Below, piece by piece: positions 4,906-51,098 of a stretch of DNA of 64,000 nucleotides. The translations under genes and the position numbers were made by a program. The notes under the pieces are model-generated. The model ran no database searches. It was not told the DNA's origin and saw only the letters and a list, made by a program, of their open reading frames with translations. Origin of the DNA: Ignavibacteria bacterium (lineage in GTDB: Bacteria > Bacteroidota > Ignavibacteria > Tepidaquicellales > OLB5); the NCBI GenBank assembly GCA_017303675.1, contig JAFLBX010000002.1, positions 1,300,411 to 1,364,410 on the forward strand. Reading direction: 5' to 3'. How positions within the stretch are numbered: position 1 is the stretch's first letter; each line of letters opens with the position of its first letter.

Positions 4906-7362
4906 ATGAATTCAATCATAAAAATTCTGATTCTTATCCTCTCCTTTAATTTTTTACATTTATACTCTCAGGAAATTATTATTCAGAATAATCCTTATGA
5001 AAAAGTAGATGAGTATACAAGTAAGAAAAAATCTTTTAACCGTGAAAAATGGTTTTACGAACAACGTATGTATCCTTTTAATCAGCTGCCTGATGATGCA
5101 TATGGCAAAGCATTTGAACAAAAACAAGAATTACGCCGTACACAAGGATTCGCCTTTGATAATTCTGTTACATGGACAAATATCGGCCCAACATCCGGGT
5201 TTTACTTTGCATATTCAAATATTTCAGGAAGAGTAACAACTGTGAAATATGACCCTGTAAACCCTTCAATAATTTATATCGGAGCAGCATTCGGAGGTGT
5301 ATGGAAATCTACAAATGGCGGTAATAATTTTTCTCCGATTAGTGATAATGAAATTTCAATGTCCTCTGGCTCAATTTGCATAGATCCTTCCAACACTAAT
5401 ATTCTTTATTACGGAACCGGTGAAGCAACCTACAGCGGTGCATCTTATTACGGAAGAGGTATCTTAAAATCAACAAATGGCGGTTCAACCTGGACAAATT
5501 ACACTAATGGTTTGCCAAGCTTAACATATTGTTCAAGAATTGTAGTACGCCCCGGATTTTCCAATCAGCTTTTAGCTGCAATGGGTACATCGGGATTATA
5601 CCGCTCAACAGATGGAGGCGTAAACTGGACTTTATCTGTATCCGGCAGGTGTGATGATGTTGTATTTTCACCCGACGGAAACAGTGCTTATATCGTAGGC
5701 GGAATCACGGGTTACAGAATTTCTACTGATGGTGGTGTAACATTTACTGCCAATACATCAGTCCCCATGGGTACAAGAAATCACATGGCTATTTGCAGAA
5801 ATACCCCTTCCGTTCTTTATATCGCTACATATGCAGGAAGTACTATAAGTACATATAAATCTACTAACTCAGGTATTAATTATACTCAGGTTTCAGTAGG
5901 CCATAATTTTGATGGCGGACAAGCCTGGTATGATTTTTATATGCAGGTAAATCCTTTTGATCCAAATTTCGCATATGTCGGCTCTATCGATATTTGGAGG
6001 ACTACCAACGGCGGAACAAATTTTGAAAATATTACCAATGGTTATTCAGGCGGGTCTGTACATGTTGATCAGCATAACATGGATTTTAATCCTCTGAATT
6101 CCAACGAACTTATAGCTGTTAACGATGGCGGAGTATGGAAATCGACTGACAGAGGTACTACATGGATTAATTTAAACGCAGGGCTGACTTTAACACAATT
6201 TTACAGAATAGCTGCTGATCCTAATAATGTTAATCATGTTATGGGAGGTACGCAGGATAACGGAACACAAAGGACTTTAGGAACGGTGAACTGGACTGCA
6301 GCATTTGGTGGCGATGGTGGCGAAGTATGTTTCCATTCACAAAGCTCTCAATTCATACTCGGTGAAACACAAAATAACGGTCTTCAGCGGTCACAAAACG
6401 GCGGTAACGGATGGCAAAACGCTACAAGCGGATTAACCGGTTCAGGCGCATGGGTTGGTCCTATTATTGCACACCCTACTACATCTGGAATTTTTTACAC
6501 TGCACGACAGCAGGTATTTCAAAGTACTAACTGGGGTGCCAGCTGGACGGCTATTTCAAGCGGAACAAGCGGTACTATCAGAGAAATGGCTATCAGTAAA
6601 TCCAATCCCAATATTATGTATGCTACGGTGAACGGTGTAGTATTTAAATCAACTAATGGCGGAATAAACTTTGTTAATTCATCCACAGGCCTTCCAACAA
6701 GAACAATTACAAGTATTAATATTCACCCTGATTCTTCACAGGTTGCAATAGTAACATTTTCAGGTTTTGGTGCCGGTAAAATTTACAAAACAACTGATGG
6801 CGGAGCAGTTTGGAATAACATCAGCGGAAATTTACCAGATTCTCCGGTAAACGACGCCTTGATATACTATCCAGGAACCTCAACAAGCATTTACTATGCT
6901 GCGATGGATATAGGTGTATTTTTTACTGATACCTGGGGTGCAACATGGACAGAACTTGCCGATGGTTTGCCAAATACAGTTGCTATGCATCTTGACTATC
7001 ACCAGGCAACAAATACACTTCGTATCGGAACTCACGGAAGGGGAGTTTGGGAAACTCATAACCCGGTAGGAATAATAAACTATAATAACCAGGTACCGGC
7101 AGGATACTCATTACAGCAAAACTATCCGAATCCATTTAATCCTGTTACAAATATTAAATATGATATTCTCTCTGAAGGCTTTGTTAATCTGGCTGTATAT
7201 GATATTTTAGGTAGAGAATTGAAGAAAATAATCAGCGAAAATCAAAGACCCGGCACATATACCGTACAGTTCGATGGTTCTGAGCTTTCAAGCGGAGTTT
7301 ATTTTTATAAATTATCTGCAAATGGTTTCACAGAAACCAAAAAGATGATGATCACAAAATAG
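4906..7362 (+). CDS. T9SS-secreted BNR/VPS10-like beta-propeller protein (glycosyl hydrolase-like) with type A CTD
   Basis: Signal peptide; many S/T-x-D/N-G-G-x-x-W BNR repeats; HVDQH; C-terminal QNYPNPFNP...YFYKL...KKM. Confidence 0.85.
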   Translation: MNSIIKILILILSFNFLHLYSQEIIIQNNPYEKVDEYTSKKKSFNREKWFYEQRMYPFNQLPDDAYGKAFEQKQELRRTQGFAFDNSVTWTNIGPTSGFYFAYSNISGRVTTVKYDPVNPSIIYIGAAFGGVWKSTNGGNNFSPISDNEISMSSGSICIDPSNTNILYYGTGEATYSGASYYGRGILKSTNGGSTWTNYTNGLPSLTYCSRIVVRPGFSNQLLAAMGTSGLYRSTDGGVNWTLSVSGRCDDVVFSPDGNSAYIVGGITGYRISTDGGVTFTANTSVPMGTRNHMAICRNTPSVLYIATYAGSTISTYKSTNSGINYTQVSVGHNFDGGQAWYDFYMQVNPFDPNFAYVGSIDIWRTTNGGTNFENITNGYSGGSVHVDQHNMDFNPLNSNELIAVNDGGVWKSTDRGTTWINLNAGLTLTQFYRIAADPNNVNHVMGGTQDNGTQRTLGTVNWTAAFGGDGGEVCFHSQSSQFILGETQNNGLQRSQNGGNGWQNATSGLTGSGAWVGPIIAHPTTSGIFYTARQQVFQSTNWGASWTAISSGTSGTIREMAISKSNPNIMYATVNGVVFKSTNGGINFVNSSTGLPTRTITSINIHPDSSQVAIVTFSGFGAGKIYKTTDGGAVWNNISGNLPDSPVNDALIYYPGTSTSIYYAAMDIGVFFTDTWGATWTELADGLPNTVAMHLDYHQATNTLRIGTHGRGVWETHNPVGIINYNNQVPAGYSLQQNYPNPFNPVTNIKYDILSEGFVNLAVYDILGRELKKIISENQRPGTYTVQFDGSELSSGVYFYKLSANGFTETKKMMITK

Positions 7363-7376
7363 TTATTTCAAATCAT

Positions 7377-7405
7377 AAAAAAAGGGGGGCAAGGCCCCCT
7401 TTTTT
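7377..7405. terminator. Bidirectional terminator between convergent genes
   Basis: A7-(G)GGGGGC-AAG-GCCCCC-T6. Confidence 0.8.
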
Positions 7406-7416
7406 ATTGCCTTAAG

Positions 7417-7767
7417 TCAATATTCTATCGTAATATCTGCAGCGTGAAAATAATCTCCGTGAAGATGTCCCATAAGAGTTAATGTTTTAGCTTTATCAAA
7501 TCCGGCAGGAAGTTCTTTTTCAATAGTGACTTTTTTAATAATACCTGCTCTATCTTTAACATAAAATGATGCTCCGCCGCCGGGATTGGGAGTTATCCCT
7601 TTTTCAACAAGCAGCTCAACTTTAATATTTTTATTGGCTGTACTGTTAATATCAAAATTACCGAATGATTCAGTTCCATCCTTTGCGGTATTATATACAC
7701 TATATAGAAGATAACCGATAAATAATACCACTACTGCGCCTATTATAATTTTTATATTTTTATTCAT
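7417..7767 (-). CDS. CcmE-like OB-fold membrane-anchored protein lacking the heme-binding C/HxxxY motif
   Basis: N-terminal TM; SFYVKDxxGxxKKV...PxxF...LxGxxxGxxFHxxxI pattern as in Bacteroidota CcmE; ends at ITIEY-stop. Confidence 0.55.
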   Translation of the reverse strand: MNKNIKIIIGAVVVLFIGYLLYSVYNTAKDGTESFGNFDINSTANKNIKVELLVEKGITPNPGGGASFYVKDRAGIIKKVTIEKELPAGFDKAKTLTLMGHLHGDYFHAADITIEY

Positions 7768-12379: not shown

Positions 12380-12590
12380 CAGCTAAAATTAAGCTTTTAT
12401 AATAGAAATTACAATGATTATTTGAATTTAAAACGTTATTTGGCTTAAATAAATTTCATAATATCATAAAATACTTGAAATTATTCTTTAATAAAATCAG
12501 TTACCTTAGTATAGATATTTAATGGTTGATTTTGCATATAATTAATAATATAATTCAGGATATTTCCAAAAAAATAACAAAAAATCACAA

Positions 12591-14567
12591 ATGAAAAGCA
12601 AATCTATTTTATTGTTTTTAATTGTTTTTTCGTTTTGTATCAATGCCTATGGGCAAATTGATCCGAACGTTCCCTTTTCAGATAAAAAATTCAAAACGAA
12701 TGTAATAATGCCTAAGGTATATCCTCTTGAGCCGTATGGCATTGATCTTATCACCATACCTGTTGGTGCATTTGATAACTACCAGGTATCTTCAAGTAAT
12801 GGTTTTGCTGAAACAGACATTGCCGTAAATCCAAGAGATCCGTTAAACTTTGTTGCTACTGATAACAGAGTAACAGGTTTTGCAGGAACCCCGCTTATTT
12901 ATTATACAACAGATGGTGGCGTAAGCTGGCTCAGTACTTCTATTTCTTCAAATCAGGGTGACCCTGTATTTGCAGCTGATAGTTTAGGCAACTTTTACTG
13001 CGCATTGCTTTCCAGCGGTATCAGACTTTTAAAATCTACCAACAAAGGTGTTAGCTGGACAAATTTAGGTAACATTGTAAATAATGCGAATGCAGATAAA
13101 GAATGGATTGCTGCAGACCAAACTGGCGGTCCGTACCAAAACCATGTTTACATGGCTTATGTGAATTTTTCAACCGGCGCAAGCGTAGATTTCCACCGTT
13201 CAACAAACAACGGCACTACATGGAGCTTTGTAGGCAACATGGGAACTGGTACACCTAACCCCGGACCCGATGTAGCAGTAGGACCGGGCGGAAGAGTTTA
13301 CCTCGCATGGTATAATGGCGGTACTGTTGTTAAAGTATCAACAGATGGCGGCGCAACATTTGCAGCTAATGTTCAGGCATCAACCCACTCAACCCCGGGT
13401 ACAATAGGACCAGGCGGAAGATATGTTTTAAAAACAAATATCCGCGTAAATGGAATGCCGCATATTGCTGTAGATATGTCATCAACTTCAAGAAGAGGTT
13501 ACATATATAATGTTTATGCTACCAATCCTCCCGGACCCGATGCTGCAGATATATTCTGCACTCGCTCAACCGATGGAGGAGCAACTTGGAGCAATGCAAG
13601 CCCGGTAAGAGTAAATGATGATACAGGCTTTATGGATCAGTGGATGCCCGATGTGAGTGTTGACCTACAGGGCAGAGTTTGGGTTATGTGGTGGGATTCA
13701 AGAAATGATGACCCTACAAATAATCTCACAGAAACATGGGGCGCAGTTTCTACAGATGGCGGCTTAACATTCACCAATTTCAAGATCGGCAGCGCTTTTA
13801 ATCCTGCGGTTATAAAAGTTAACCAGGGAGATCATTATTACTTAGGTGATTACCAGGGTATTGCAGGTAGGAATATTACTTTCCCGTTCTATACCGGACA
13901 GAACAATACATTACAGGATTTCACTGCTTACTTGCCTGATTTTGGTATTTCATTCAATAAATCAATCGATAGCATCAATGCCGGTTCAACTTCTGTTGTA
14001 AGAATGAGAAACCCGGTTATGGGTCCTTACTCAGGAACCGTTACATATACTACCAGCATTTCACCATCTCCATCACCCGGAACATTAACACCTACATTTT
14101 CACCGGGTAATGTAAGGAATTTTACCGGTGCTGCTGATTCAGTTCTTATCAACACAACATCAACTGCTAATGTACCGCTGGGACTTTATACAGTAACAGT
14201 TACCGGTACAGAATCCGGCGGACCCAGAACACACAACAGAACTTACCAGATAAGAGTAGGTAACTTTGTAGGTATACAGCAGAATGGCTCAGAAGTTCCG
14301 CAGGTTTATTCATTGCAGCAGAACTATCCGAATCCGTTCAACCCTGTAACAAATATAAAATTCAGCCTGCCAAAAGGCTCATTTGTTACACTTAAAGTGT
14401 ATGATTTGCTCGGCAAAGAAGTTGCTTCGCTTGTGAACAACCTCAATCTTGCAGCCGGAAATTATACTTATGATTTCAATGCTGTTAATATCCCGAGCGG
14501 AATTTACTTCTATAAATTATCAGCAGGTGAATTTTCAGATGTGAAGAAAATGACACTGATAAAGTAA
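12591..14567 (+). CDS. T9SS-secreted BNR/sialidase-like protein with type A CTD
   Basis: Signal peptide; STDGG repeats; DKEW, RVNDD, GDY motifs; QNYPNPFNP CTD. Confidence 0.85.
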   Translation: MKSKSILLFLIVFSFCINAYGQIDPNVPFSDKKFKTNVIMPKVYPLEPYGIDLITIPVGAFDNYQVSSSNGFAETDIAVNPRDPLNFVATDNRVTGFAGTPLIYYTTDGGVSWLSTSISSNQGDPVFAADSLGNFYCALLSSGIRLLKSTNKGVSWTNLGNIVNNANADKEWIAADQTGGPYQNHVYMAYVNFSTGASVDFHRSTNNGTTWSFVGNMGTGTPNPGPDVAVGPGGRVYLAWYNGGTVVKVSTDGGATFAANVQASTHSTPGTIGPGGRYVLKTNIRVNGMPHIAVDMSSTSRRGYIYNVYATNPPGPDAADIFCTRSTDGGATWSNASPVRVNDDTGFMDQWMPDVSVDLQGRVWVMWWDSRNDDPTNNLTETWGAVSTDGGLTFTNFKIGSAFNPAVIKVNQGDHYYLGDYQGIAGRNITFPFYTGQNNTLQDFTAYLPDFGISFNKSIDSINAGSTSVVRMRNPVMGPYSGTVTYTTSISPSPSPGTLTPTFSPGNVRNFTGAADSVLINTTSTANVPLGLYTVTVTGTESGGPRTHNRTYQIRVGNFVGIQQNGSEVPQVYSLQQNYPNPFNPVTNIKFSLPKGSFVTLKVYDLLGKEVASLVNNLNLAAGNYTYDFNAVNIPSGIYFYKLSAGEFSDVKKMTLIK

Positions 14568-14587
14568 TACTTATATTTTTAGCTTTT

Positions 14588-14616
14588 AAAGGGCGCTCAA
14601 ATGAGCGCCTTTTTTT
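14588..14616 (+). terminator. Rho-independent terminator
   Basis: GGCGCTCA-AA-TGAGCGCC followed by T7. Confidence 0.85.
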
Positions 14617-14639
14617 GTACAGTCCCGCTGGGACGTCTC
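14617..14639. repeat. Intergenic copy of the GTAGAGACG-type palindrome
   Basis: gtcccgctgggacgtctc (14622-14639) is identical to 49183-49200. Confidence 0.75.
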
Positions 14640-14771
14640 AGTTTAACGACTCCTGAAAGGCTTCGGCTACAACGGCAAAAAGAATGCTTTGCAACGAGAA
14701 CTGCAATCTTCCCTTTTTCACTGAACAATTATAATTATATTTGAAGAACCACACATATAAAATATACTGAT

Positions 14772-43546: not shown

Positions 43547-45364
43547 TTACTTAATTAATACCATTTTTTTAATAATTGAATTATTTTCTGTCAGCATTCT
43601 GTAAAAATAAATTCCGCTTGATAAGCCTGAAGCATTAAATTCAGCTTTATAACTGCCTGCTTTTAACCTGTCATTAATTATAGTAGAAACAATTTGTCCC
43701 AGAGAGTTACATACATCAATTTTTACCCCTGTTAATTCCGGTACATCAAATTCTATTGTTGTAGACGGGTTAAATGGATTTGGATAATTCTGCCTTAAAG
43801 AAAATTGAGAAGGAATCTTATTGGATTCCGGCTCATACCCGGTAATATTATTATCGTAATTATATTTAAATACCCTGTATGAAAAGACACCTGCCGGAAG
43901 GTTCATAACAAGAGCTCTGGTTCCATCCGGTTTAACTTCAGTAACAGTAGGATTAACTGATCCCCAGCTTATTAAAGTATTACCGTTTTCAAGTCTTTGG
44001 GCAAAGCCCATTGCATTTCCGTAAATCGCAGGAGAATTTTTATACTCCCATACTTTTGTTGCAATGCGGTTAGTTTCATCCAGGATATACTCAACAGCCC
44101 TGGATTCAGATGGAGTATGATAATTACCGTTATCAAACATTATTATATTCCCGTTCAGAAGCCTCCTTATACCATGCTGATGAGAAAATCTCCCCGGATC
44201 ATTGGGGAAGCTGAACTGATTCTGCTTTCCTCCAAGTCTCCAGATAATATTGCCGGTTAACCTGTTTATTTTTGTGATTTCATCTAGATGTCGCGATGAA
44301 AGCAAAATATTTCCGTCATTGTCTGCTTCTAATGCATTGCCATGTATATAATCAATTTCAACTGCCAGAAAATCTTCATGAGTTGCATCTGTTATGGGAA
44401 TATGGTCCCAGCTTCTCCACTGAAATACAACATTTTTATTAACATCAATTTCCTGAATTATTAAACCTGTAACCTGTGCTGCAGGATTCCCGCCCTGGAC
44501 GATCTGGCTCATATCCACGATCTGTTTATCATAACTCATTAATAATGCATTCCGGTTCGGAAGTACCCGCAATTCATGTATATCTGTCAGGTAACCATTA
44601 CCGGTATAAAAGCTATCAACACGCACATAGTTAGTATCAAGCTCATAATACTTTCCCCCGTTCCTGCTGAAATATGTAAAATTACCATTAGGCTGACGGT
44701 TGAAATCAAATACCTGTGCGCTCATTTGCCTGGAGAAAACAGCGGAAGCATCGTTATTAAGTATTAACAGATGAGGAGTATTTGGTATTTGAACATTGAA
44801 TACTATATTCGACATCAAAATTTTACCGGGTGAAGGATTATCGGAAAAAATTACATTAATTTGAGGTATATCTTGAGAACCTGTAAATGAAGGTATATTG
44901 TTTTCTAGTTTTGAAATTAATTCCGCACTTAATTCATTTTCCAAACCTGTGAAATGAGATTGAATGAGAGGTCTTTCAGTTACGTAAAACGAATATTCAA
45001 ATGGTTCAATACTTTTCCCGCTTTTATCTTTAATAACAGATGAAAATTTTACTGCTATCTTTTCCCCATCAGCAAACCCGGTTAAGGTTTTAAAGATATA
45101 TGTACTTTTATCTGCTGATACCACACATGTATAACTATAGTTGTAATTTATACTGCCTGTAATTGTTACTGCGCCGGGTTTTAAAATTGAGCCTGCGTTT
45201 AACAGTGCATTCGGACGAATTGCTATTGCAGTATTTTTATTCACATATTTTGCATTTGGAACCGGGTCAAAATAGCTTAAATAGCTTTTACCGGCAGTAC
45301 CTGAAGCAAAAGTAAAAAAATTAAAGAGAATAATTGCAGTAAAAACTAAAAACGGTTTGGGCAT
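43547..45364 (-). CDS. Aryl-sulfate sulfotransferase-like protein with N-terminal Ig-like domain and T9SS CTD
   Basis: DYIHGNAL, WRLGG, SHQHG, FDNG, ENGNTLISWG; QNYPNPFNP CTD. Confidence 0.8.
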   Translation of the reverse strand: MPKPFLVFTAIILFNFFTFASGTAGKSYLSYFDPVPNAKYVNKNTAIAIRPNALLNAGSILKPGAVTITGSINYNYSYTCVVSADKSTYIFKTLTGFADGEKIAVKFSSVIKDKSGKSIEPFEYSFYVTERPLIQSHFTGLENELSAELISKLENNIPSFTGSQDIPQINVIFSDNPSPGKILMSNIVFNVQIPNTPHLLILNNDASAVFSRQMSAQVFDFNRQPNGNFTYFSRNGGKYYELDTNYVRVDSFYTGNGYLTDIHELRVLPNRNALLMSYDKQIVDMSQIVQGGNPAAQVTGLIIQEIDVNKNVVFQWRSWDHIPITDATHEDFLAVEIDYIHGNALEADNDGNILLSSRHLDEITKINRLTGNIIWRLGGKQNQFSFPNDPGRFSHQHGIRRLLNGNIIMFDNGNYHTPSESRAVEYILDETNRIATKVWEYKNSPAIYGNAMGFAQRLENGNTLISWGSVNPTVTEVKPDGTRALVMNLPAGVFSYRVFKYNYDNNITGYEPESNKIPSQFSLRQNYPNPFNPSTTIEFDVPELTGVKIDVCNSLGQIVSTIINDRLKAGSYKAEFNASGLSSGIYFYRMLTENNSIIKKMVLIK

Positions 45365-45596: not shown

Positions 45597-46919
45597 TTAT
45601 TTTACCAAAGCCATTTTTTTGGTTTCTGAATACTTTTCAGTTTCAAGTTTATAAAAATATACACCGCTTGGATAATCTGAAGCATTCCATTCGGCTTCAT
45701 ATGTGCCGTAGTTTAAATTCTGATTTACCAATATATTTACTACCCTGCCTAAAGCATCAAATACAGATAATTTTACGTTACCTTTAACCGGAATACTGAA
45801 CTTTATTTTTGTAACGGGATTGAATGGATTTGGATAATTTTGAGAAAGCGAATAATTTTCCGGTATACTATTGCCCGTTTGTGTAATACCTGAGAAGTAA
45901 TAATTGCAGCGGGTAATGCCCCCGTTTGATCTTACGCCAAAACAAATTCCGCTGTTCCTTACATTTGTAAAATGCCTGTAGTTACCAGCAGGTGCTGTAT
46001 ATTCAATTGCCCAAGAAGAACCATACATCCCTCTGTATATACTTGTTGTGTTTCTGGTATACCAGCAATAACCATAAAAATCAACCGGTGCCGGGAACAT
46101 TACGAAGCCGGAAAAATTTCCTGTACCTAACGATGCTTGCGAAGACCAGTTAGCGCCATAATTTGAACTTCTTATAAGGTTAGTGCCGCCGGCCAAACCT
46201 TCGCCACCGCCAAAAAAAATCATTGCTAACGCATATGTATTAACTTCCGGAGCTGTTGATTGGGATATCCAGGTTGAGCCAAAATTAGTTGAATAATATA
46301 TTCTTGTATTATTTGTTCCAAACCAAATTGAACTATCAAGACCTGTATTAAAGGAATAAGGTGCCTGTGTGCCTATGAAAATTGAATTATTCCATCCTGC
46401 TTCAGTACCTGCCTGCGGCAGGTAGCAGCCGGCAGAATCCCAGTTTATACCGCCATTTGAAGTTTTAAAAAGTGACCACCTTCCCCCAGCTGGATCTCCC
46501 TGTGCAAATCCGTGCAGCGGCTGATTTCTTTTAAAAACTATACCGTTTATAAAACCACCGGGCTGGGAAAGTACCTGTACCCAGTTTGCACCGGCATTTG
46601 ATGTGCGCCAGATCCATGTATCACTGCCAACATAACCCGCCGTTATAGCTGTTGACGCATCTATTCCCCAGATGCTTACTAATGAAACAGTATTTGGGAT
46701 TCCCCCGCCGCTTACATTCAGCCAGTTCGATCCCCCATTAGTAGTTCTAAGGACGGTTCCGCTGTAACCGCAGACCCATATGTTCATTTCTGTTATCGGT
46801 GATACCGATGTCAGCTGAACTGTAACACCTGAAGTCTGCTCAACCCAATACTGGGAATAAGCTGAACACGTTAAAACCGAAAAGAAAAAAAATATGTAAA
46901 TTAATTTTTTCACATTCAT
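45597..46919 (-). CDS. T9SS cargo, YCF48/BNR-like propeller (paralog B1)
   Basis: RTTNGGSNW repeats; GDPAGGRWS; type A CTD. Confidence 0.8.
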   Translation of the reverse strand: MNVKKLIYIFFFFSVLTCSAYSQYWVEQTSGVTVQLTSVSPITEMNIWVCGYSGTVLRTTNGGSNWLNVSGGGIPNTVSLVSIWGIDASTAITAGYVGSDTWIWRTSNAGANWVQVLSQPGGFINGIVFKRNQPLHGFAQGDPAGGRWSLFKTSNGGINWDSAGCYLPQAGTEAGWNNSIFIGTQAPYSFNTGLDSSIWFGTNNTRIYYSTNFGSTWISQSTAPEVNTYALAMIFFGGGEGLAGGTNLIRSSNYGANWSSQASLGTGNFSGFVMFPAPVDFYGYCWYTRNTTSIYRGMYGSSWAIEYTAPAGNYRHFTNVRNSGICFGVRSNGGITRCNYYFSGITQTGNSIPENYSLSQNYPNPFNPVTKIKFSIPVKGNVKLSVFDALGRVVNILVNQNLNYGTYEAEWNASDYPSGVYFYKLETEKYSETKKMALVK

Positions 46920-46923
46920 TATT

Positions 46924-47790
46924 TTATTTTATTAGAACCATTTTCTTTGTTTCAGAATAATCTTCAGTTTCCAGCTTATAATAATAAACCCCGCTCGGGT
47001 ATGCTGAAGCATCCCAGTCAACTTTATATGATCCTGGCTGCAAATCACGATTGAGCAAAATTTCAACTTCCTTGCCAATCACATCGAAAACCGTTAATTT
47101 CACAAAACCGAAATCAGCAATACGAAAATCGATATAAGTTAACGGATTGAACGGGTTTGGATAGTTTTGGGAAAGTGAATAATTTTCGGGTACTTCTGAA
47201 GATATTTGATTTAAGCCCACTAATGATGTATCGCCATAAACTACGCCATCAATAATACATCCCCGCAGGTGTTCAACATAAAATATATTTCCGCTTTGCG
47301 TGTAAAGCTCCATGATACCGAAATTTCTGGCAAAAATTATACCGTTATTTCCCAATCTGAAATTCTTTGTTCTTCTAAATGTTCCAAAAAGTTCCCTTAA
47401 ATTAGTATCGCTGCAGACTTTATAATTTGCACCGCAGTCATATTTTATTGTATCATTCAGCGCTGCCGAAAGTGAATCTCCCATTCTATCGAAAGGTGAC
47501 CATTGGCATCCGTTGCTGCTAGAATAGTAATATCGGTTAGCTGTTAAAGAATCAATACGCTGATAATATCCGCCATATGAATAATAAATATGTCCATTGT
47601 AAATATTCGTACTTGTTACCTGTCTGCTGAATCTTCCTGACTGCCCGAACTGAGTACTGTAAAAAGAATAAACCCACTTATTTCCGGGCTTAAGGGGGAA
47701 ATATGATACAGCATCATTAATTTGTGAAATAATATAAACGCTATTTATATTAGCAAAAAATATTAATATTAATATTTTGTTAATTTTCAT
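46924..47790 (-). CDS. T9SS cargo of unknown function (paralog A1)
   Basis: YFPLKPGNKW, RIDS, GCIIDGVVYGDT; CTD. Confidence 0.8.
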   Translation of the reverse strand: MKINKILILIFFANINSVYIISQINDAVSYFPLKPGNKWVYSFYSTQFGQSGRFSRQVTSTNIYNGHIYYSYGGYYQRIDSLTANRYYYSSSNGCQWSPFDRMGDSLSAALNDTIKYDCGANYKVCSDTNLRELFGTFRRTKNFRLGNNGIIFARNFGIMELYTQSGNIFYVEHLRGCIIDGVVYGDTSLVGLNQISSEVPENYSLSQNYPNPFNPLTYIDFRIADFGFVKLTVFDVIGKEVEILLNRDLQPGSYKVDWDASAYPSGVYYYKLETEDYSETKKMVLIK

Positions 47791-47842
47791 TTATGATACT
47801 CCAATCTAATATATCAGTGAAATATTATTTTAAAGTGATACC

Positions 47843-49132
47843 TCATTTCACTAAAACCATTTTTCTTGTTTCTGTAAAGAAGCTTTGTTGAGAAGTCACT
47901 TCCTGAAGTTTATAATAATACACACCGCTTGGATAGGCTGATGCGTCCCAGTTAGCGATATACGTGCCGGGCTGAAGCTGTTTATTAATTATAACATCTA
48001 TTTCTCTGCCAATTGCGTCATAAATTGATAATTTTACCAAACCGTAATCTGTTATACTAAATTCGAAATTCGTAACCGGATTGAACGGATTTGGATAATT
48101 TTGGGATAAAGAAAATTTTTCAGGTACTTCGCCGCTGGTTTGGTTTACACCTTCCACGAATACATTGAACTTTGTAATACCTCCGTTCGACCTTACCCCA
48201 TACCCCACAATCGGCCAGCCGGAATTCCTTTCAACCCCGATATGATTATATGAGCCCGCAGGCGCTGTATAATAAACAAACCATTGTCCCGTGCCGAATC
48301 CATAATAAATTGAGCTGCTTGCATTCCTTACATACATTACATTTCCTGACCACATAGGAAAACCCGTCATTCCAACGATCAAACCCGATCCAAGAGAACC
48401 TATTCCTGTCCAGTTTACCCCGTAATTCGTGCTTTTAAAAATATTATTACCTCCAAAATATCCTGTTGTGTTTCCGTTCGGATCAAACCACAATGCTGTG
48501 ACATCCGTTTCAGGAGAAGAATTTTGTACCGTCCAGTTTGCTCCGTTATTTGAAGAATAATATATCCTTGTGTTGTTAGTTCCAAACCAAATTCTGGTTT
48601 GCGCGTAAGTCATACAATTTGAGTAACCCGCTTCCGTGCCTGCTTGGGGTAACCCTAAACCTGCTGAATCCCAAACAGCACCGTTATTACTTGTTTTCCA
48701 TATTGACCACCTTCCCCCAACAGGATCACCCATCATAAAACCCGTACTGTCATTTTTTATGCTTACAGCATTTATAAACCCATTAGCCTGGCTGAATACC
48801 TGCTGCCAGTTCGCACCTGAATTTGTTGTACGCCATACCCAGGTGTTGGTAGCATTGTATCCTGCTGCTAATACAAGCGAAGGCGTTACGGCAAAAATGT
48901 GATTCAAGGTAATATTCACGGGAATACCGCTTCCTGTAACATTAAGCCAATTGACGCCGCCATTTGATGTCCTAAGTACTGTACCGTTATCACCGCATAT
49001 CCAGGCATTGTTAAGATCAAAAACTGATACACAATTCAGACTTACCGTTACACCTGAATTCTGTTCAAACATTTGCGCAAAAGTAAGTTGTGAAGATATG
49101 ATCAAGATGATCAAAAGTAAAATTTTCTTCAT
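47843..49132 (-). CDS. T9SS cargo, YCF48/BNR-like propeller (paralog B2)
   Basis: Shares GDPxGGRWS, LPQAGTEAG, IWFGTNNTRIYYS with B1; CTD. Confidence 0.8.
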   Translation of the reverse strand: MKKILLLIILIISSQLTFAQMFEQNSGVTVSLNCVSVFDLNNAWICGDNGTVLRTSNGGVNWLNVTGSGIPVNITLNHIFAVTPSLVLAAGYNATNTWVWRTTNSGANWQQVFSQANGFINAVSIKNDSTGFMMGDPVGGRWSIWKTSNNGAVWDSAGLGLPQAGTEAGYSNCMTYAQTRIWFGTNNTRIYYSSNNGANWTVQNSSPETDVTALWFDPNGNTTGYFGGNNIFKSTNYGVNWTGIGSLGSGLIVGMTGFPMWSGNVMYVRNASSSIYYGFGTGQWFVYYTAPAGSYNHIGVERNSGWPIVGYGVRSNGGITKFNVFVEGVNQTSGEVPEKFSLSQNYPNPFNPVTNFEFSITDYGLVKLSIYDAIGREIDVIINKQLQPGTYIANWDASAYPSGVYYYKLQEVTSQQSFFTETRKMVLVK

Positions 49133-49143
49133 TATTTATTCTT

Positions 49144-50100
49144 TTATTTAATTAATACCATTTTTTTAGTTTCTGTAAAGACGTCCCGCTGGGACGTCTC
49201 GACCTTTAGCTTATAATAATACACGCCGCTCGGATATGCTGAAGCATCCCAATCGGCTTCATATGTGCCTGGCTGTAACTGCTGATTTACAAGGATTGCT
49301 GCTTCTTTACCGAGGGCATCGTAAATTGATAAAAGTGTTAACACACCCCGCCCTTCGGGCACCCCTCTCAAGAGGGGAACACTGAATTTTATTTTCGTAA
49401 CCGGATTAAACGGGTTTGGATAATTTTGAGATAATGAAAATTTTTCAGGAGTTTCTGTACTAAGCACACTTATACCAACAGGAAACGATGTATCACCATA
49501 CAAAACACCATCAATTATAGATCCCTGCAAAGTATAAGTGCAGCTAGAGCCTGCATAACAACCCATTACAGAACTTACTAAACCAATATATTTAGCGTAC
49601 CTTCTGAATTTAAAATATGTTGGTACATTCTGACCTACATATTTGGTTCTGTAATTATTTCCGAACATATTTATAATATTAGTATCCTGGCAGGATGTAA
49701 AATAACATGAATTACTAGTGAATATATTTGGCAGCATTTTTAAAGAATCAAGTAACATCTCATTTGGATTCCATGTACAGGAACCAGCAGCGGTATTGAA
49801 ATAAATATTTCCATTAGAACTATCGATCCGGATTCCATTATTTAGTTGAACTAAAAATGGTGAATAAGAATAGAACGAGCAACTACAAGGTGTGCCGTTT
49901 AAATCCAGGTTAAAATATTTATGTCCGTTATTTATAATAAATCCTGATACGCTCATTTTAATTTTACCGGAGCCGCTGGAGCCGGAATAATTATATATCC
50001 ACACATTACCTGTCTTAAGAGGCAGATATTTAACAATACTGGTATCTTGTGCAATAATTACAGAAAAATTAAAAAATAGTATTAAGAGTATTGTTTTCAT
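49144..50100 (-). CDS. T9SS cargo of unknown function (paralog A2), two palindrome-derived inserts in its CTD
   Basis: YLPLKTGNVW, RIDS, GSIIDGVLYGDT; CTD. Confidence 0.8.
   Translation of the reverse strand: MKTILLILFFNFSVIIAQDTSIVKYLPLKTGNVWIYNYSGSSGSGKIKMSVSGFIINNGHKYFNLDLNGTPCSCSFYSYSPFLVQLNNGIRIDSSNGNIYFNTAAGSCTWNPNEMLLDSLKMLPNIFTSNSCYFTSCQDTNIINMFGNNYRTKYVGQNVPTYFKFRRYAKYIGLVSSVMGCYAGSSCTYTLQGSIIDGVLYGDTSFPVGISVLSTETPEKFSLSQNYPNPFNPVTKIKFSVPLLRGVPEGRGVLTLLSIYDALGKEAAILVNQQLQPGTYEADWDASAYPSGVYYYKLKVETSQRDVFTETKKMVLIK
49175..49203. repeat. In-frame GTAGAGACG-type palindrome (encodes VETSQRDVF)
   Basis: AGACGTCCC-GCT-GGGACGTCT perfect 9-bp stem. Confidence 0.85.
49341..49378. repeat. In-frame double-hairpin element (encodes PLLRGVPEGRGV)
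   Basis: GCCC-TTC-GGGC and CCCCTC-TCAA-GAGGGG; GC-rich island in AT-rich gene. Confidence 0.8.
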
Positions 50101-50108
50101 ATTTACTC

Positions 50109-51098
50109 CTATTTTATTAAAACCATTTTTTTAGAGTCTGTAAAGACGTCCCGCTGGGTTTTCTCGACCTTTAACTTATAATAATAAACACCACTGGGAT
50201 ATGATGATGCGTCCCATTCTGCTTCGTAAATGCCGGGCTGTAACTGCTGATTTACAAGGATTGCTAACTCTTTACCGAGGGCATCATATACAATCAGTCT
50301 TGTAGAGATGGCCCCGTGGGTCGTTTCATTTTGCGGTATACTGAATTTAATTTTTGTAACCGGGTTGAATGGGTTTGGATAGTTTTGGGATAAGGAAAAT
50401 TTTTCAGGAATTTCTGTGCTAACGGGAATTACACCAACAGGAAAAGTTGTATCGCCGTATAATTGGCCGTTAATTATACACCCCTTAAGAACTTCTTCAG
50501 TATATGTCATCATTCCCTGGCTTCGTGAATAGACCTTACCTATTCCTCTTGCATAAACATGATATCCATAAGCTTCAAAATAATTTGTCCAGCCGAAGCT
50601 TTCAGATATGTAGGTTTGATTTAAAAAATTGTACGTACCGCGTGTGTGTGTGTACCATGAGCCCCCGGTAGAGCCGATGCAATACGTAAAAGCAGAATCA
50701 TTAACAGGTGTATTCAGACTGTCATTCAAACACTCAGAAGTATCATTACCCGATATATAAAGTGAATAGAAATTTCCTGTTAATGAATCTATTCTTAAAA
50801 AACTGTATCCTGATGTGTATTGATTGGTATAAATAATATAAGAATCGATTTTCATTTTATAATACAGGTGATTTCTGATTACCTGGGTACCCGTTATTAA
50901 TGCTGATATATATCCTGATCCTGGAGTGTAGTTACGATACAGGTTCCATGACCAGCGGTTTCCAACATTTAATGGATAATAGTTAAAGATACTGCTGTCA
51001 ATTACAGCCTTAATGCTGCTTTCCTGATGCGCATAAATTTCCGGAGATTTGCCATGTAGGGTAAATCCGAGTAAAATGATGACAAGGTATTTCATCAC
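50109..51098 (-). CDS. T9SS cargo of unknown function (paralog A3), two palindrome-derived inserts in its CTD
   Basis: YYPLNVGNRW, RIDS, GCIINGQLYGDT; CTD. Confidence 0.8.
   Translation of the reverse strand: MMKYLVIILLGFTLHGKSPEIYAHQESSIKAVIDSSIFNYYPLNVGNRWSWNLYRNYTPGSGYISALITGTQVIRNHLYYKMKIDSYIIYTNQYTSGYSFLRIDSLTGNFYSLYISGNDTSECLNDSLNTPVNDSAFTYCIGSTGGSWYTHTRGTYNFLNQTYISESFGWTNYFEAYGYHVYARGIGKVYSRSQGMMTYTEEVLKGCIINGQLYGDTTFPVGVIPVSTEIPEKFSLSQNYPNPFNPVTKIKFSIPQNETTHGAISTRLIVYDALGKELAILVNQQLQPGIYEAEWDASSYPSGVYYYKLKVEKTQRDVFTDSKKMVLIK

Follow-up and report, generated by a model that had tools for sequence, protein, structure and literature searches.

How does a perfect DNA palindrome come to be translated, in frame, within the last hairpin of a protein secretion signal? 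The question is raised by a 64,000-nucleotide stretch of the genome of an Ignavibacteria bacterium (assembly GCA_017303675.1, contig JAFLBX010000002.1, positions 1,300,411 to 1,364,410; C2:1300411–1364410 of genome G000, and called the window below), in which a run of minus-strand genes (43547–45364, 45597–46919, 46924–47790, 47843–49132, 49144–50100 and 50109–51098) encodes type IX secretion system (T9SS) cargo proteins with a C-terminal sorting domain (CTD). The genome measures 3.65 Mb at 37.8% GC, and contains both T9SS machinery (a SprA_N match with E 3e-41 in an open reading frame, or ORF, of 2207 aa) and 316 ORFs bearing a C-terminal CTD, 172 of them of canonical length. The analysis described here assigns the palindrome to a genus-specific family of GTAG-tagged repetitive extragenic palindromes (REPs), which we call REP-A, and its capture in CTD loops is most likely a tolerated, immobilised insertion that has been spread among CTD paralogues by recombination.

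The palindrome and its copies in the window

All six cargo proteins of the run were tested against PF18962 (Por_Secre_tail) and match it at 27.5–46.9 bits (cut-off 27), and a profile made from the genome's own canonical CTDs finds nine CTDs in the window. The last loop of the domain, between a Y-x-L/M motif and a conserved aromatic position, is four residues long in six of these (SANG, SAGE, SSGS, LTEN, ETEK and ETED) and nine residues long in three, all of them encoded by tandem genes (QEVTSQQSF, KVETSQRDV and KVEKTQRDV). These are the lengths given by the original prediction, which had been made from the letters of the window and whose loop coordinates hold to within 3–5 nt; the exact minus-strand codons are 47879–47905, 49180–49206 and 50145–50171. 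The match to PF18962 ends at model position 67–68 of 75 in the three insert-bearing CTDs and at 73–74 in the others.

The most complete copy lies in the β6–β7 loop of the 318-aa product of gene 49144–50100 (minus strand), a protein with two repeat-derived CTD loops, where the codons for K-V-E-T-S-Q-R-D-V (49180–49206) coincide with a REP-A core at 49179–49199. This core, AGACGTCCC-GCT-GGGACGTCT, is a perfect 9+3+9 palindrome with 0 mismatches, as had been claimed, and dinucleotide shuffles, by which the chance level was estimated, put the expected number of such matches at 0. Together with its tag, a degenerate GTAA at 49175–49178, the element reads forward on the plus strand and antisense to the gene. 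The paralogous cargo gene 50109–51098 (329 aa, minus strand) carries decayed REP-A in both CTD loops. Its β6–β7 copy (50144–50164, encoding KVEKTQRDV) has one mutated arm (AGACGTCCCGCTGGGTTTTCT), within which all 3 mismatches to the perfect palindrome fall, and its β2–β3 loop holds a decayed variant, GTAGAGATGGCCC-CGT-GGGTCGTTTC, at 50302–50327 that encodes QNETTHGAIST. The equivalent β2–β3 loop in genome G004, in the CTD of a gene from the 49144–50100 cargo clade, keeps a perfect palindrome.

In the third nine-residue loop, that of gene 47843–49132, the codons for Q-E-V-T-S-Q-Q-S-F (47879–47905, minus strand) preserve the loop length while the palindrome is gone. It is identical to the intact copy at 15/27 bases over an equal length, with T-S-Q in common, and is the putative oldest member of a decay series, a homology that is plausible but not proven. 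RNA folding energies follow the series as it had been proposed, from −17.9 kcal/mol (z −4.1) for the perfect copy to −7.9 kcal/mol (z −0.2) for the copy with one mutated arm and −4.7 kcal/mol (z 0.1) for the loop without palindrome, next to −4.8 for a canonical CTD, with the homology of the third member moderately supported.

A copy outside any CTD is found on the plus strand at 14617–14639 (GTACAG^TCCC-GCT-GGGACGTCTC, with a 3-nt deletion in the left arm), and it shares with the intact CTD copy the 18-mer GTCCCGCTGGGACGTCTC, identical at 14622–14639 and 49183–49200 as first noticed. Long ORFs are taken here as those of at least 80 aa; this copy lies 56 nt past the stop of the CTD gene 12549–14564, with 102 nt separating it from the long ORF that follows, and so it is intergenic. 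At the syntenic site in genome G002, downstream of the orthologue of 12549–14564 (L030, C6:395500–402500), there is an array of intact REP-A copies with a 240-bp period, each unit consisting of two REP-A and two other hairpins in the manner of a bacterial interspersed mosaic element, and the window site (14560–14700) keeps a single REP-A.

A genus-specific REP family

A genome-wide search for GAGACG[T/A]CCC-NNN-GGG[A/T]CGTCTC, with up to 3 mismatches allowed, returns 29 REP-A copies. The unit is GTAG-AGACG[T/A]CCC-NNN-GGG[A/T]CGTCT, in its intergenic form GTAG-AGACGTCCC-GYY-GGGACGTCT, with GC-rich arms of 9–10 bp around a 3-nt loop; intergenic copies have 0–1 mismatch in the inner 10 bp and bear the tag (GTAG, or GTAA, GTAT, GTAC or GCAG) on a single side only. 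Further variants have compensated stems (GTTCC/GGAAC, GCCCC/GGGGC, GTGCC/GGCAC and a TGACC type) or expanded loops. The one-sided tag and the palindrome match the architecture of the GTAG-tagged REPs already described (PMC3733652), and the family has three features by which REPs are recognised: a short stem-loop palindrome, a GT[AG]G-type tag at one end, and a cognate REP-associated tyrosine transposase (RAYT) flanked by copies of the family.

The dispersal anticipated from the single intergenic copy is borne out by the census. Sixteen of the 29 copies lie outside any long ORF, 11 are in CTDs, one is in the RAYT gene and one is in short, doubtful ORFs, and the family's own RAYT gene aside no copy falls in any other long ORF of the genome. 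When variants are included, about 20 of 26 intergenic copies are situated 17–130 nt downstream of a gene 3′ end, which is where published REPs lie (PMC3733652); a T/A-run accompanies about 8 of 19 intergenic copies. With CTDs occupying 2.35% of the genome, REP-A is strongly enriched in them (binomial p = 3e-11, or p = 1.6e-5 when paralogous copies are merged, leaving 6 in CTDs among 24 independent events). The search was extended to 18 congeners and to 12 genomes from the order's other genera: 17 of the 18 congeners contain REP-A, with 1–37 matches each, and none of the 12 other genomes does. The palindrome is thus a member of a genus-specific family of GTAG-tagged REPs.

The cognate transposase

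The RAYT association that had been suggested for a GTAG-type repeat is found outside the window, at C2:1022051–1022578 (locus L031, C2:1021800–1022580), where a 185-aa ORF encodes the RAYT cognate to REP-A. The protein has NHFHGII (the HUH motif as HFH) and Y-I-Y-Y-N-P (a tyrosine with asparagine at +4), in line with published motif criteria for RAYTs (PMC3479197; PMC6006769). It scores 23.5 bits against PF01797 (cut-off 23). With NF047646, the NCBIfam model named 'REP-associated tyrosine transposase', it reaches 59.8 bits (E 2.6e-16), a value under the cut-off of 80 that marks it as a divergent relative and not an equivalog. Two REP doublets with a 160-bp repeat unit precede the gene, the nearer of them ending 9 nt upstream of the ATG, and a further REP inside it, in frame at nucleotide ∼292, encodes PETPQRGVSTE. 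With these 11 REP-encoded residues removed the PF01797 score is 24.8 bits and the match is contiguous over positions 33–119. REP insertion within tnpAREP is a hallmark of RAYT subclass 2.4 (PMC6006769); the internal REP is thus an established phenomenon in itself, and it singles out this gene as the family's transposase, a subclass-2.4-like RAYT that is predicted to bind and cleave REP-A.

Because the internal REP splits the Y1_Tnp domain, a first scan with PF01797 missed this gene. The 11 genes that the scan did return were rejected as the cognate RAYT, each being flanked by another hairpin family and not by REP-A, and the twelfth RAYT-like gene was recognised through an ambiguous REP-A copy within the 185-aa ORF. 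RAYTs near REP-A copies in genomes G002 and G012 were likewise rejected, as they are not flanked by REP-A.

The layout is kept in orthologues from nine congeners (56–80% identity). Wherever orientation let the distance be measured REP-A stands 9–13 nt before the start codon, the internal in-frame REP occupies a conserved position (as a decayed or expanded remnant in two copies), and in G014 and G012 an additional REP follows 14 nt past the stop. The stem variant is identical inside and outside each of these genes, in G000 as in the nine congeners, which suggests concerted evolution of the transposase and its REPs. More distant homologues (at most 47% identity) have no REP-A, and homologues in Bacteroidota metagenome-assembled genomes and in a Flavobacterium have their own GTAGAGAC-type REPs at the equivalent place in the ORF; the Flavobacterium genome with its related RAYT contains only 5 REP copies, 0 of them in a CTD.

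The genome is unusually rich in such genes for its 3.65 Mb. At least ten further Y1_Tnp or RAYT-like genes were seen (C1:483297, C1:587177, C1:97008, C1:437651, C1:2037317, C2:430812, C2:1530177, C2:1235689, C2:21070 and C2:919918), each with a distinct flanking hairpin family, for example CCCACGAC-TTTA-GTCGTGGG, CGATGGGC-GAA-GCCCATCG and GTCGTTGGTG-TTTT-CACCAACGAC.

Position, codon phase and structure

Insertions in the 316 CTDs cluster in profile columns 24–32 (the loop Lβ2β3), 60–64 (Lβ5β6) and 74–81 (Lβ6β7), and none of the 316 has an insert in columns 33–47, which include the conserved YD-x-LG motif of Lβ3β4. Among CTD motifs, an experimental requirement is established for two, Lβ3β4 and the C-terminus (PMC11285876). 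REP-A copies occur in CTDs at two positions only, one 57 residues from the C-terminus (β2–β3) and the other 10 residues from it (β6–β7); at the level of DNA the β6–β7 copy precedes the stop by 33 nt and the β2–β3 loop by ∼170 nt. Every CTD copy is read in one codon phase, ...ACG-[T/A]CC-NNN-GGN-..., which translates as V-E-T-S-R-W-D-V or, in the opposite orientation, as E-T-S-Q-R-D-V, and since two or three phases are open this uniformity is not forced. The REP inside the RAYT gene has the same phase and orientation as the β6–β7 copies, that is, as the reverse-oriented CTD copies, to which one β2–β3 case also belongs.

The CTD of gene 49144–50100 (102 residues) was modelled with its insert by AlphaFold2 from an alignment of 73 sequences (predicted local distance difference test score 89, predicted template modelling score 0.81). 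The model is an Ig-like β-sandwich of seven strands (residues 6–9, 18–25, 37–44, 50–59, 62–69, 76–85 and 90–100), for which Foldseek retrieved generic Ig-like sandwiches only from the PDB. The REP peptide (K83–V91) sits at the tip of the last hairpin and extends both of its strands, with a turn at T86–R89, and codon Q88, the midpoint of the DNA palindrome, is also the midpoint of that turn. An up-and-down topology would put Lβ2β3 and Lβ6β7 at one end of the sandwich, with Lβ3β4 and the C-terminus at the other.

Other repeats in the same loops

The original prediction proposed to test whether loop-length outliers coincide with genome-wide REP families; such a coincidence is seen, and it extends beyond REP-A. 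In searches with blastn-short, 16 of 99 CTD loop inserts of at least 3 residues find at least two non-CTD loci, but only 6 of 297 control segments, matched for length and taken from these genes, do so (Fisher p = 1.6e-6); a 13-mer word count was discarded as a repeat test because it was non-specific, with matches as frequent in controls as in inserts. Overall some 15–25 of the 316 CTDs carry repeat-derived loops.

Two families besides REP-A were delimited. Class B is a composite, CCCCTCT-nn-AGAGGGGTG-variable hairpin-GGGGTGT, of which the window holds an in-frame example, CCCCTCTTGAGAGGGGTG-CCCGAAGGG-CGGGGTGT, at 49343–49377 (minus strand) in the β2–β3 loop of gene 49144–50100; it encodes LLRGVPEGRGV and forms an unstructured loop (residues 26–36) in the AlphaFold2 model. 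Ten of its 22 strict copies are in CTD β2–β3 loops, 12 in no long ORF and 0 in other long ORFs. Class C (CCTTCG-N-GCTCAGG) has 61 copies, of which 55 are outside long ORFs and the rest are divided equally between CTD last loops and other long ORFs, with three in each. In the three CTD last loops it reads DPSTGSGR or DPSTTLRV (loci such as C2:221897, C2:832821 and C1:1959896), and the motif is also present in CTDs of congeners (L015, L018 and L019). Sludge and soil metagenome contigs from other organisms or strains have different short palindromes (for example ATCACCAGCGGTGATT) or class C at the same CTD loop (joints 49179/50176 and 47879/49208).

Origin, spread and decay of the inserts

In a tree of cargo domains, gene 49144–50100 is sister (100/98) to G012:C230:7421–8344, which has canonical CTD loops, gene 50109–51098 is sister (100/100) to a REP-less gene of G017, and the REP-bearing G012 gene 6527–7417 is sister to an insert-free gene of G006. 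The closest orthologues of the REP-bearing genes thus have the four-residue loop, and on this phylogenetic evidence the nine-residue loop is derived. The earlier claim that the longer loop is not ancestral stands for these genes, although nine-residue last loops also exist in CTDs with unrelated, non-palindromic DNA (e.g. EPNGN and SNDGN), which indicates that the loop length itself is structurally favoured.

There is reason to think that the inserts have travelled with the domain. A single CTD backbone lineage of G000, 84–95% identical outside the loops, has them variously filled: β2–β3 is empty or holds class B, and β6–β7 is either unoccupied or taken up by REP-A or class C. The junction of REP and β6–β7 is present in 9 of 21 genomes of the genus at 1–3 copies each, on examined cargoes ranging from ∼311 to 956 residues. 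The decoupling of cargo from CTD histories indicates that CTDs, or just the 3′ parts of them, pass from gene to gene. The β6–β7 copies nearly all have an AGC loop and the same junctions across the genus, which favours one old event spread by CTD recombination, and the β2–β3 copies have at least five loop or stem variants, which favours several events.

The cargo run itself offers a local case. The region 45597–51098 looks like a duplicated two-gene unit made up of a 318-aa type and a BNR/sortilin-like type, in which the paralogous cargo gene 46924–47790 (minus strand) retains a canonical CTD with the ETED loop and provides an internal 'empty' comparator, and the BNR-type gene 45597–46919 (minus strand), a paralogue of 47843–49132, has a canonical CTD with the ETEK loop. 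The CTD of 47843–49132 is closer to that of its neighbour than to that of its own paralogue, which suggests local exchange of CTDs within the region.

Palindromes in CTDs are more decayed than those between genes. In the inner 10 bp of the stem CTD copies have on average 1.8 mismatches and intergenic copies 0.8 (Mann–Whitney p = 0.004). At β6–β7 the tag is also no longer intact: it reads GTAA (in the lineage of the window) or GTAT (in the C1 lineage), which on the coding strand supplies a Phe or Tyr codon for the conserved aromatic residue. E. coli TnpAREP requires all four GTAG bases for cleavage (PMC3479197), and these copies should therefore be immobile. The aromatic codon might have arisen from the Ser codon (TCT) of the tag complement by mutation to Phe or Tyr, or native F/Y-T codons might have acted as a pseudo-tag.

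Two kinds of variant were noticed among the REP-bearing genes of other genomes. In G004, the near-identical REP-bearing CTD genes L027 (C283:113–1255) and L025 (C247) are distinguished by a single A, in a run of four (A4) or five (A5) just upstream of the REP; with A5 the frame moves to the RDVPAGRLY phase and the last β-strand is lost, which may point to a pseudogene, to slippage or to an error of sequencing. Expanded-loop forms of REP-A were noticed at L061 (G002:C13), L062 (G007:C79) and L051 (G012:C467): ETSQLSSQSGRDV is translated in two CTDs, and a similar form, PEMSQQKSQSGRDV, lies inside a RAYT orthologue. These forms, seen in two CTDs and a RAYT orthologue, suggest nested insertion or growth of the loop within the REP.

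How the loops came to be filled

The reading most likely to account for these observations is capture followed by tolerance. REP-A would normally come to rest just downstream of genes, presumably through the activity of its RAYT, with a minority fixed in frame in Lβ2β3 and Lβ6β7. Several properties may make these loops permissive: the palindrome of 21 nt is divisible by three, and in one phase it would give a β-hairpin-compatible peptide (V/A-E-T-S/T-x-x-D/V-V) whose apex coincides with that of the DNA hairpin; neither loop is among the functionally required motifs, Lβ3β4 and the C-terminus; and the CTD would be a signal domain that is removed after export, as it is in the species studied so far. 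The insert would then travel with the CTD, tandem duplication and recombination (possibly gene conversion) among the ∼316 paralogous CTDs carrying it to unrelated cargoes. Loss of the tag would leave the β6–β7 copies immobile, after which the stems would decay, probably at little cost to the protein, and the loop length and part of the peptide would persist. The original prediction had the REP captured in a secretion signal and in the course of domestication as peptide; capture, tolerance and decay are upheld, and a gained function is not, any function of the insert being unproven.

Several observations sit uneasily with this account. The codons AAA GTT GAG ACG TCC CAG GGG GAC GTC replace four codons (GAA AGC GGC AGT) of a neighbouring paralogue, a net gain of 15 nt by replacement and not by clean insertion, and no cut-and-paste footprint was seen. 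The REPs flanking the RAYT gene of G000 have GCCCC and GTGCC stems and not the commonest variant, GTCCC, and no REP lies downstream of that gene. At ∼30 copies, 38% of them intragenic (in CTDs), REP-A is small for a REP family. The single codon phase where two or three are open, like the near-uniform AGC loop and junctions of the β6–β7 copies, would also fit targeted integration or selection on the peptide, and the persistence of perfect palindromes in CTDs of several species may mean that the hairpin itself is selected.

An unlikely alternative is targeted integration, in which the two CTD loops are specific integration sites, recognised by sequence (the tag-like GTAA or GTAT provided by Phe/Tyr-Thr codons) or by structure, at which repeats insert repeatedly and replace one another. 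Three unrelated repeat families in the same loops of near-identical CTD backbones are what such targeting would produce, as is the fact that REP-A and class B have 38–45% of their copies in CTDs and, the RAYT gene aside, none in other long ORFs. The five or more loop and stem variants at β2–β3 imply several events, and the constant codon phase and the mimicry of the tag complement by native F/Y-T codons point the same way. However, no target-site duplication and no clean pair of filled and empty DNA was found at the CTD REPs; metagenome contigs showed no indel alleles, although they break at CTD repeats and mix organisms. Many paralogues, recombination and a filter of tolerance would give the same picture, the decoupled phylogenies of cargo and CTD imply that CTDs are swapped, and class C is present in other ORFs too.

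A broader form of targeting is similarly doubtful. The two loops would be landing pads for RAYT-mobilised REPs and other micro-repeats, with F/Y-T codons mimicking the complement of the GTAG tag and the REP pre-adapted to translation by the in-frame copy in its own RAYT; together with CTD swapping this would amount to a loop-cassette system. If true, secretion signals of hundreds of surface proteins would be continually diversified in frame.

It might instead be supposed that the hairpin is kept near the 3′ end of the coding sequence for a role in mRNA or DNA, as a 3′ stabiliser, a processing site or an attenuator between packed cistrons that leave no room for an intergenic REP. The cargo genes of the window are indeed only 8–11 nt apart, the β6–β7 copy lies close to the stop, the hairpin is very stable, perfect palindromes recur in the CTDs of other species, and intergenic REP-A directly follows gene 3′ ends, with a T-run in about 8 of 19 cases. 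This explanation is nevertheless improbable. The hairpin has been lost from all but one of the window's three tandem paralogues, which argues against an essential function of hairpin or peptide; CTD copies are more decayed than intergenic ones; the other landing loop is far upstream of the stop; and no CTD copy of REP-A has a T-run, so that none conforms to an intrinsic terminator (a GC-rich hairpin with a T-run). Finally, an old nine-residue variant with accidentally palindromic DNA, or a palindrome arisen in situ with intergenic look-alikes that are unrelated or CTD-derived, could appeal to the nine-residue loops with non-palindromic DNA but is scarcely credible. The genome-wide census and the short loop in orthologues of REP-bearing genes already contradict it, as do the absence of matches expected from shuffles, the intergenic copies that share 18–25 identical bases and the GTAG tag without CTD flanks, and the REP-A copies flanking the family's own RAYT.

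Relation to known systems and significance

In-frame REPs as such are already known. The intragenic GTAG/CGTC-tagged REPs of Di Nocera et al. (2013; PMC3733652) are, like REP-A, short GTAG-tagged palindromes mostly located downstream of ORFs, with a minority in frame in apparently functional genes, and a link to RAYTs is discussed by those authors. Their hosts are diverse, many being replication or repair proteins, with no preferred domain, whereas 11 of 12 coding copies of REP-A, the exception being that in the RAYT, are in one domain type, in two fixed loops and one phase, and share these loops with other repeat families. RAYTs of subclass 2.4 (group 4 of Bertels), which occur in Bacteroidetes and Cyanobacteria, resemble the transposase found here in their NH[IFV]H, W-Q and YIxNNP-like motifs and in the REP within the ORF; the REPs described there are in the transposase gene itself, unlike those in secretion-signal domains (Quentin et al. 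2018; PMC6006769). A secretion-signal domain as a recurrent REP sink appears to be new, and no report of a domain-specific REP hot spot in T9SS CTDs was found in the literature. An extra β-hairpin in a CTD loop other than Lβ3β4 or the C-terminus is also present in PorU and PorZ, where the additional Lβ5β6 hairpin was tested in P. gingivalis and had no effect on T9SS function (PMC11285876). That hairpin is in a different loop and is not repeat-derived, and its tolerance is experimental where that of REP-A would follow from comparison.

The Rickettsia palindromic elements (RPEs), as Di Nocera et al. present them, are the classic model for the origin of new peptide segments from selfish DNA, and share with REP-A the behaviour of in-frame mobile palindromes that add surface peptide to functional proteins (Ogata et al. 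2000 and Claverie and Ogata 2003, via PMC3733652). REP-A differs in being 21–29 nt long, of unrelated sequence and from Ignavibacteria, in having an identified RAYT, and in adding a net 5 residues at the tip of a β-hairpin. It works like an RPE, by in-frame peptide insertion, but is not a member of that family. RPE-1 is ∼100–150 bp long, and no associated RAYT is known in Rickettsia.

The CTDs of this genus offer a natural, many-replicate example of selfish DNA becoming protein sequence. A single genus displays the family that donated the DNA, its transposase, orthologous sites that are empty and decay at several stages, and the structural outcome is a simple one, a β-hairpin made longer at its tip. 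The system suits tests of target choice by REPs and RAYTs and of the CTD loops that the T9SS tolerates. Inserts in CTDs shorten profile matches and will confound the annotation of T9SS cargo, the alignment of CTDs and metagenome assembly. More generally, a secretion-signal domain with hundreds of paralogous copies in one genome acts as a sink, and possibly as a spreader, for mobile micro-repeats.

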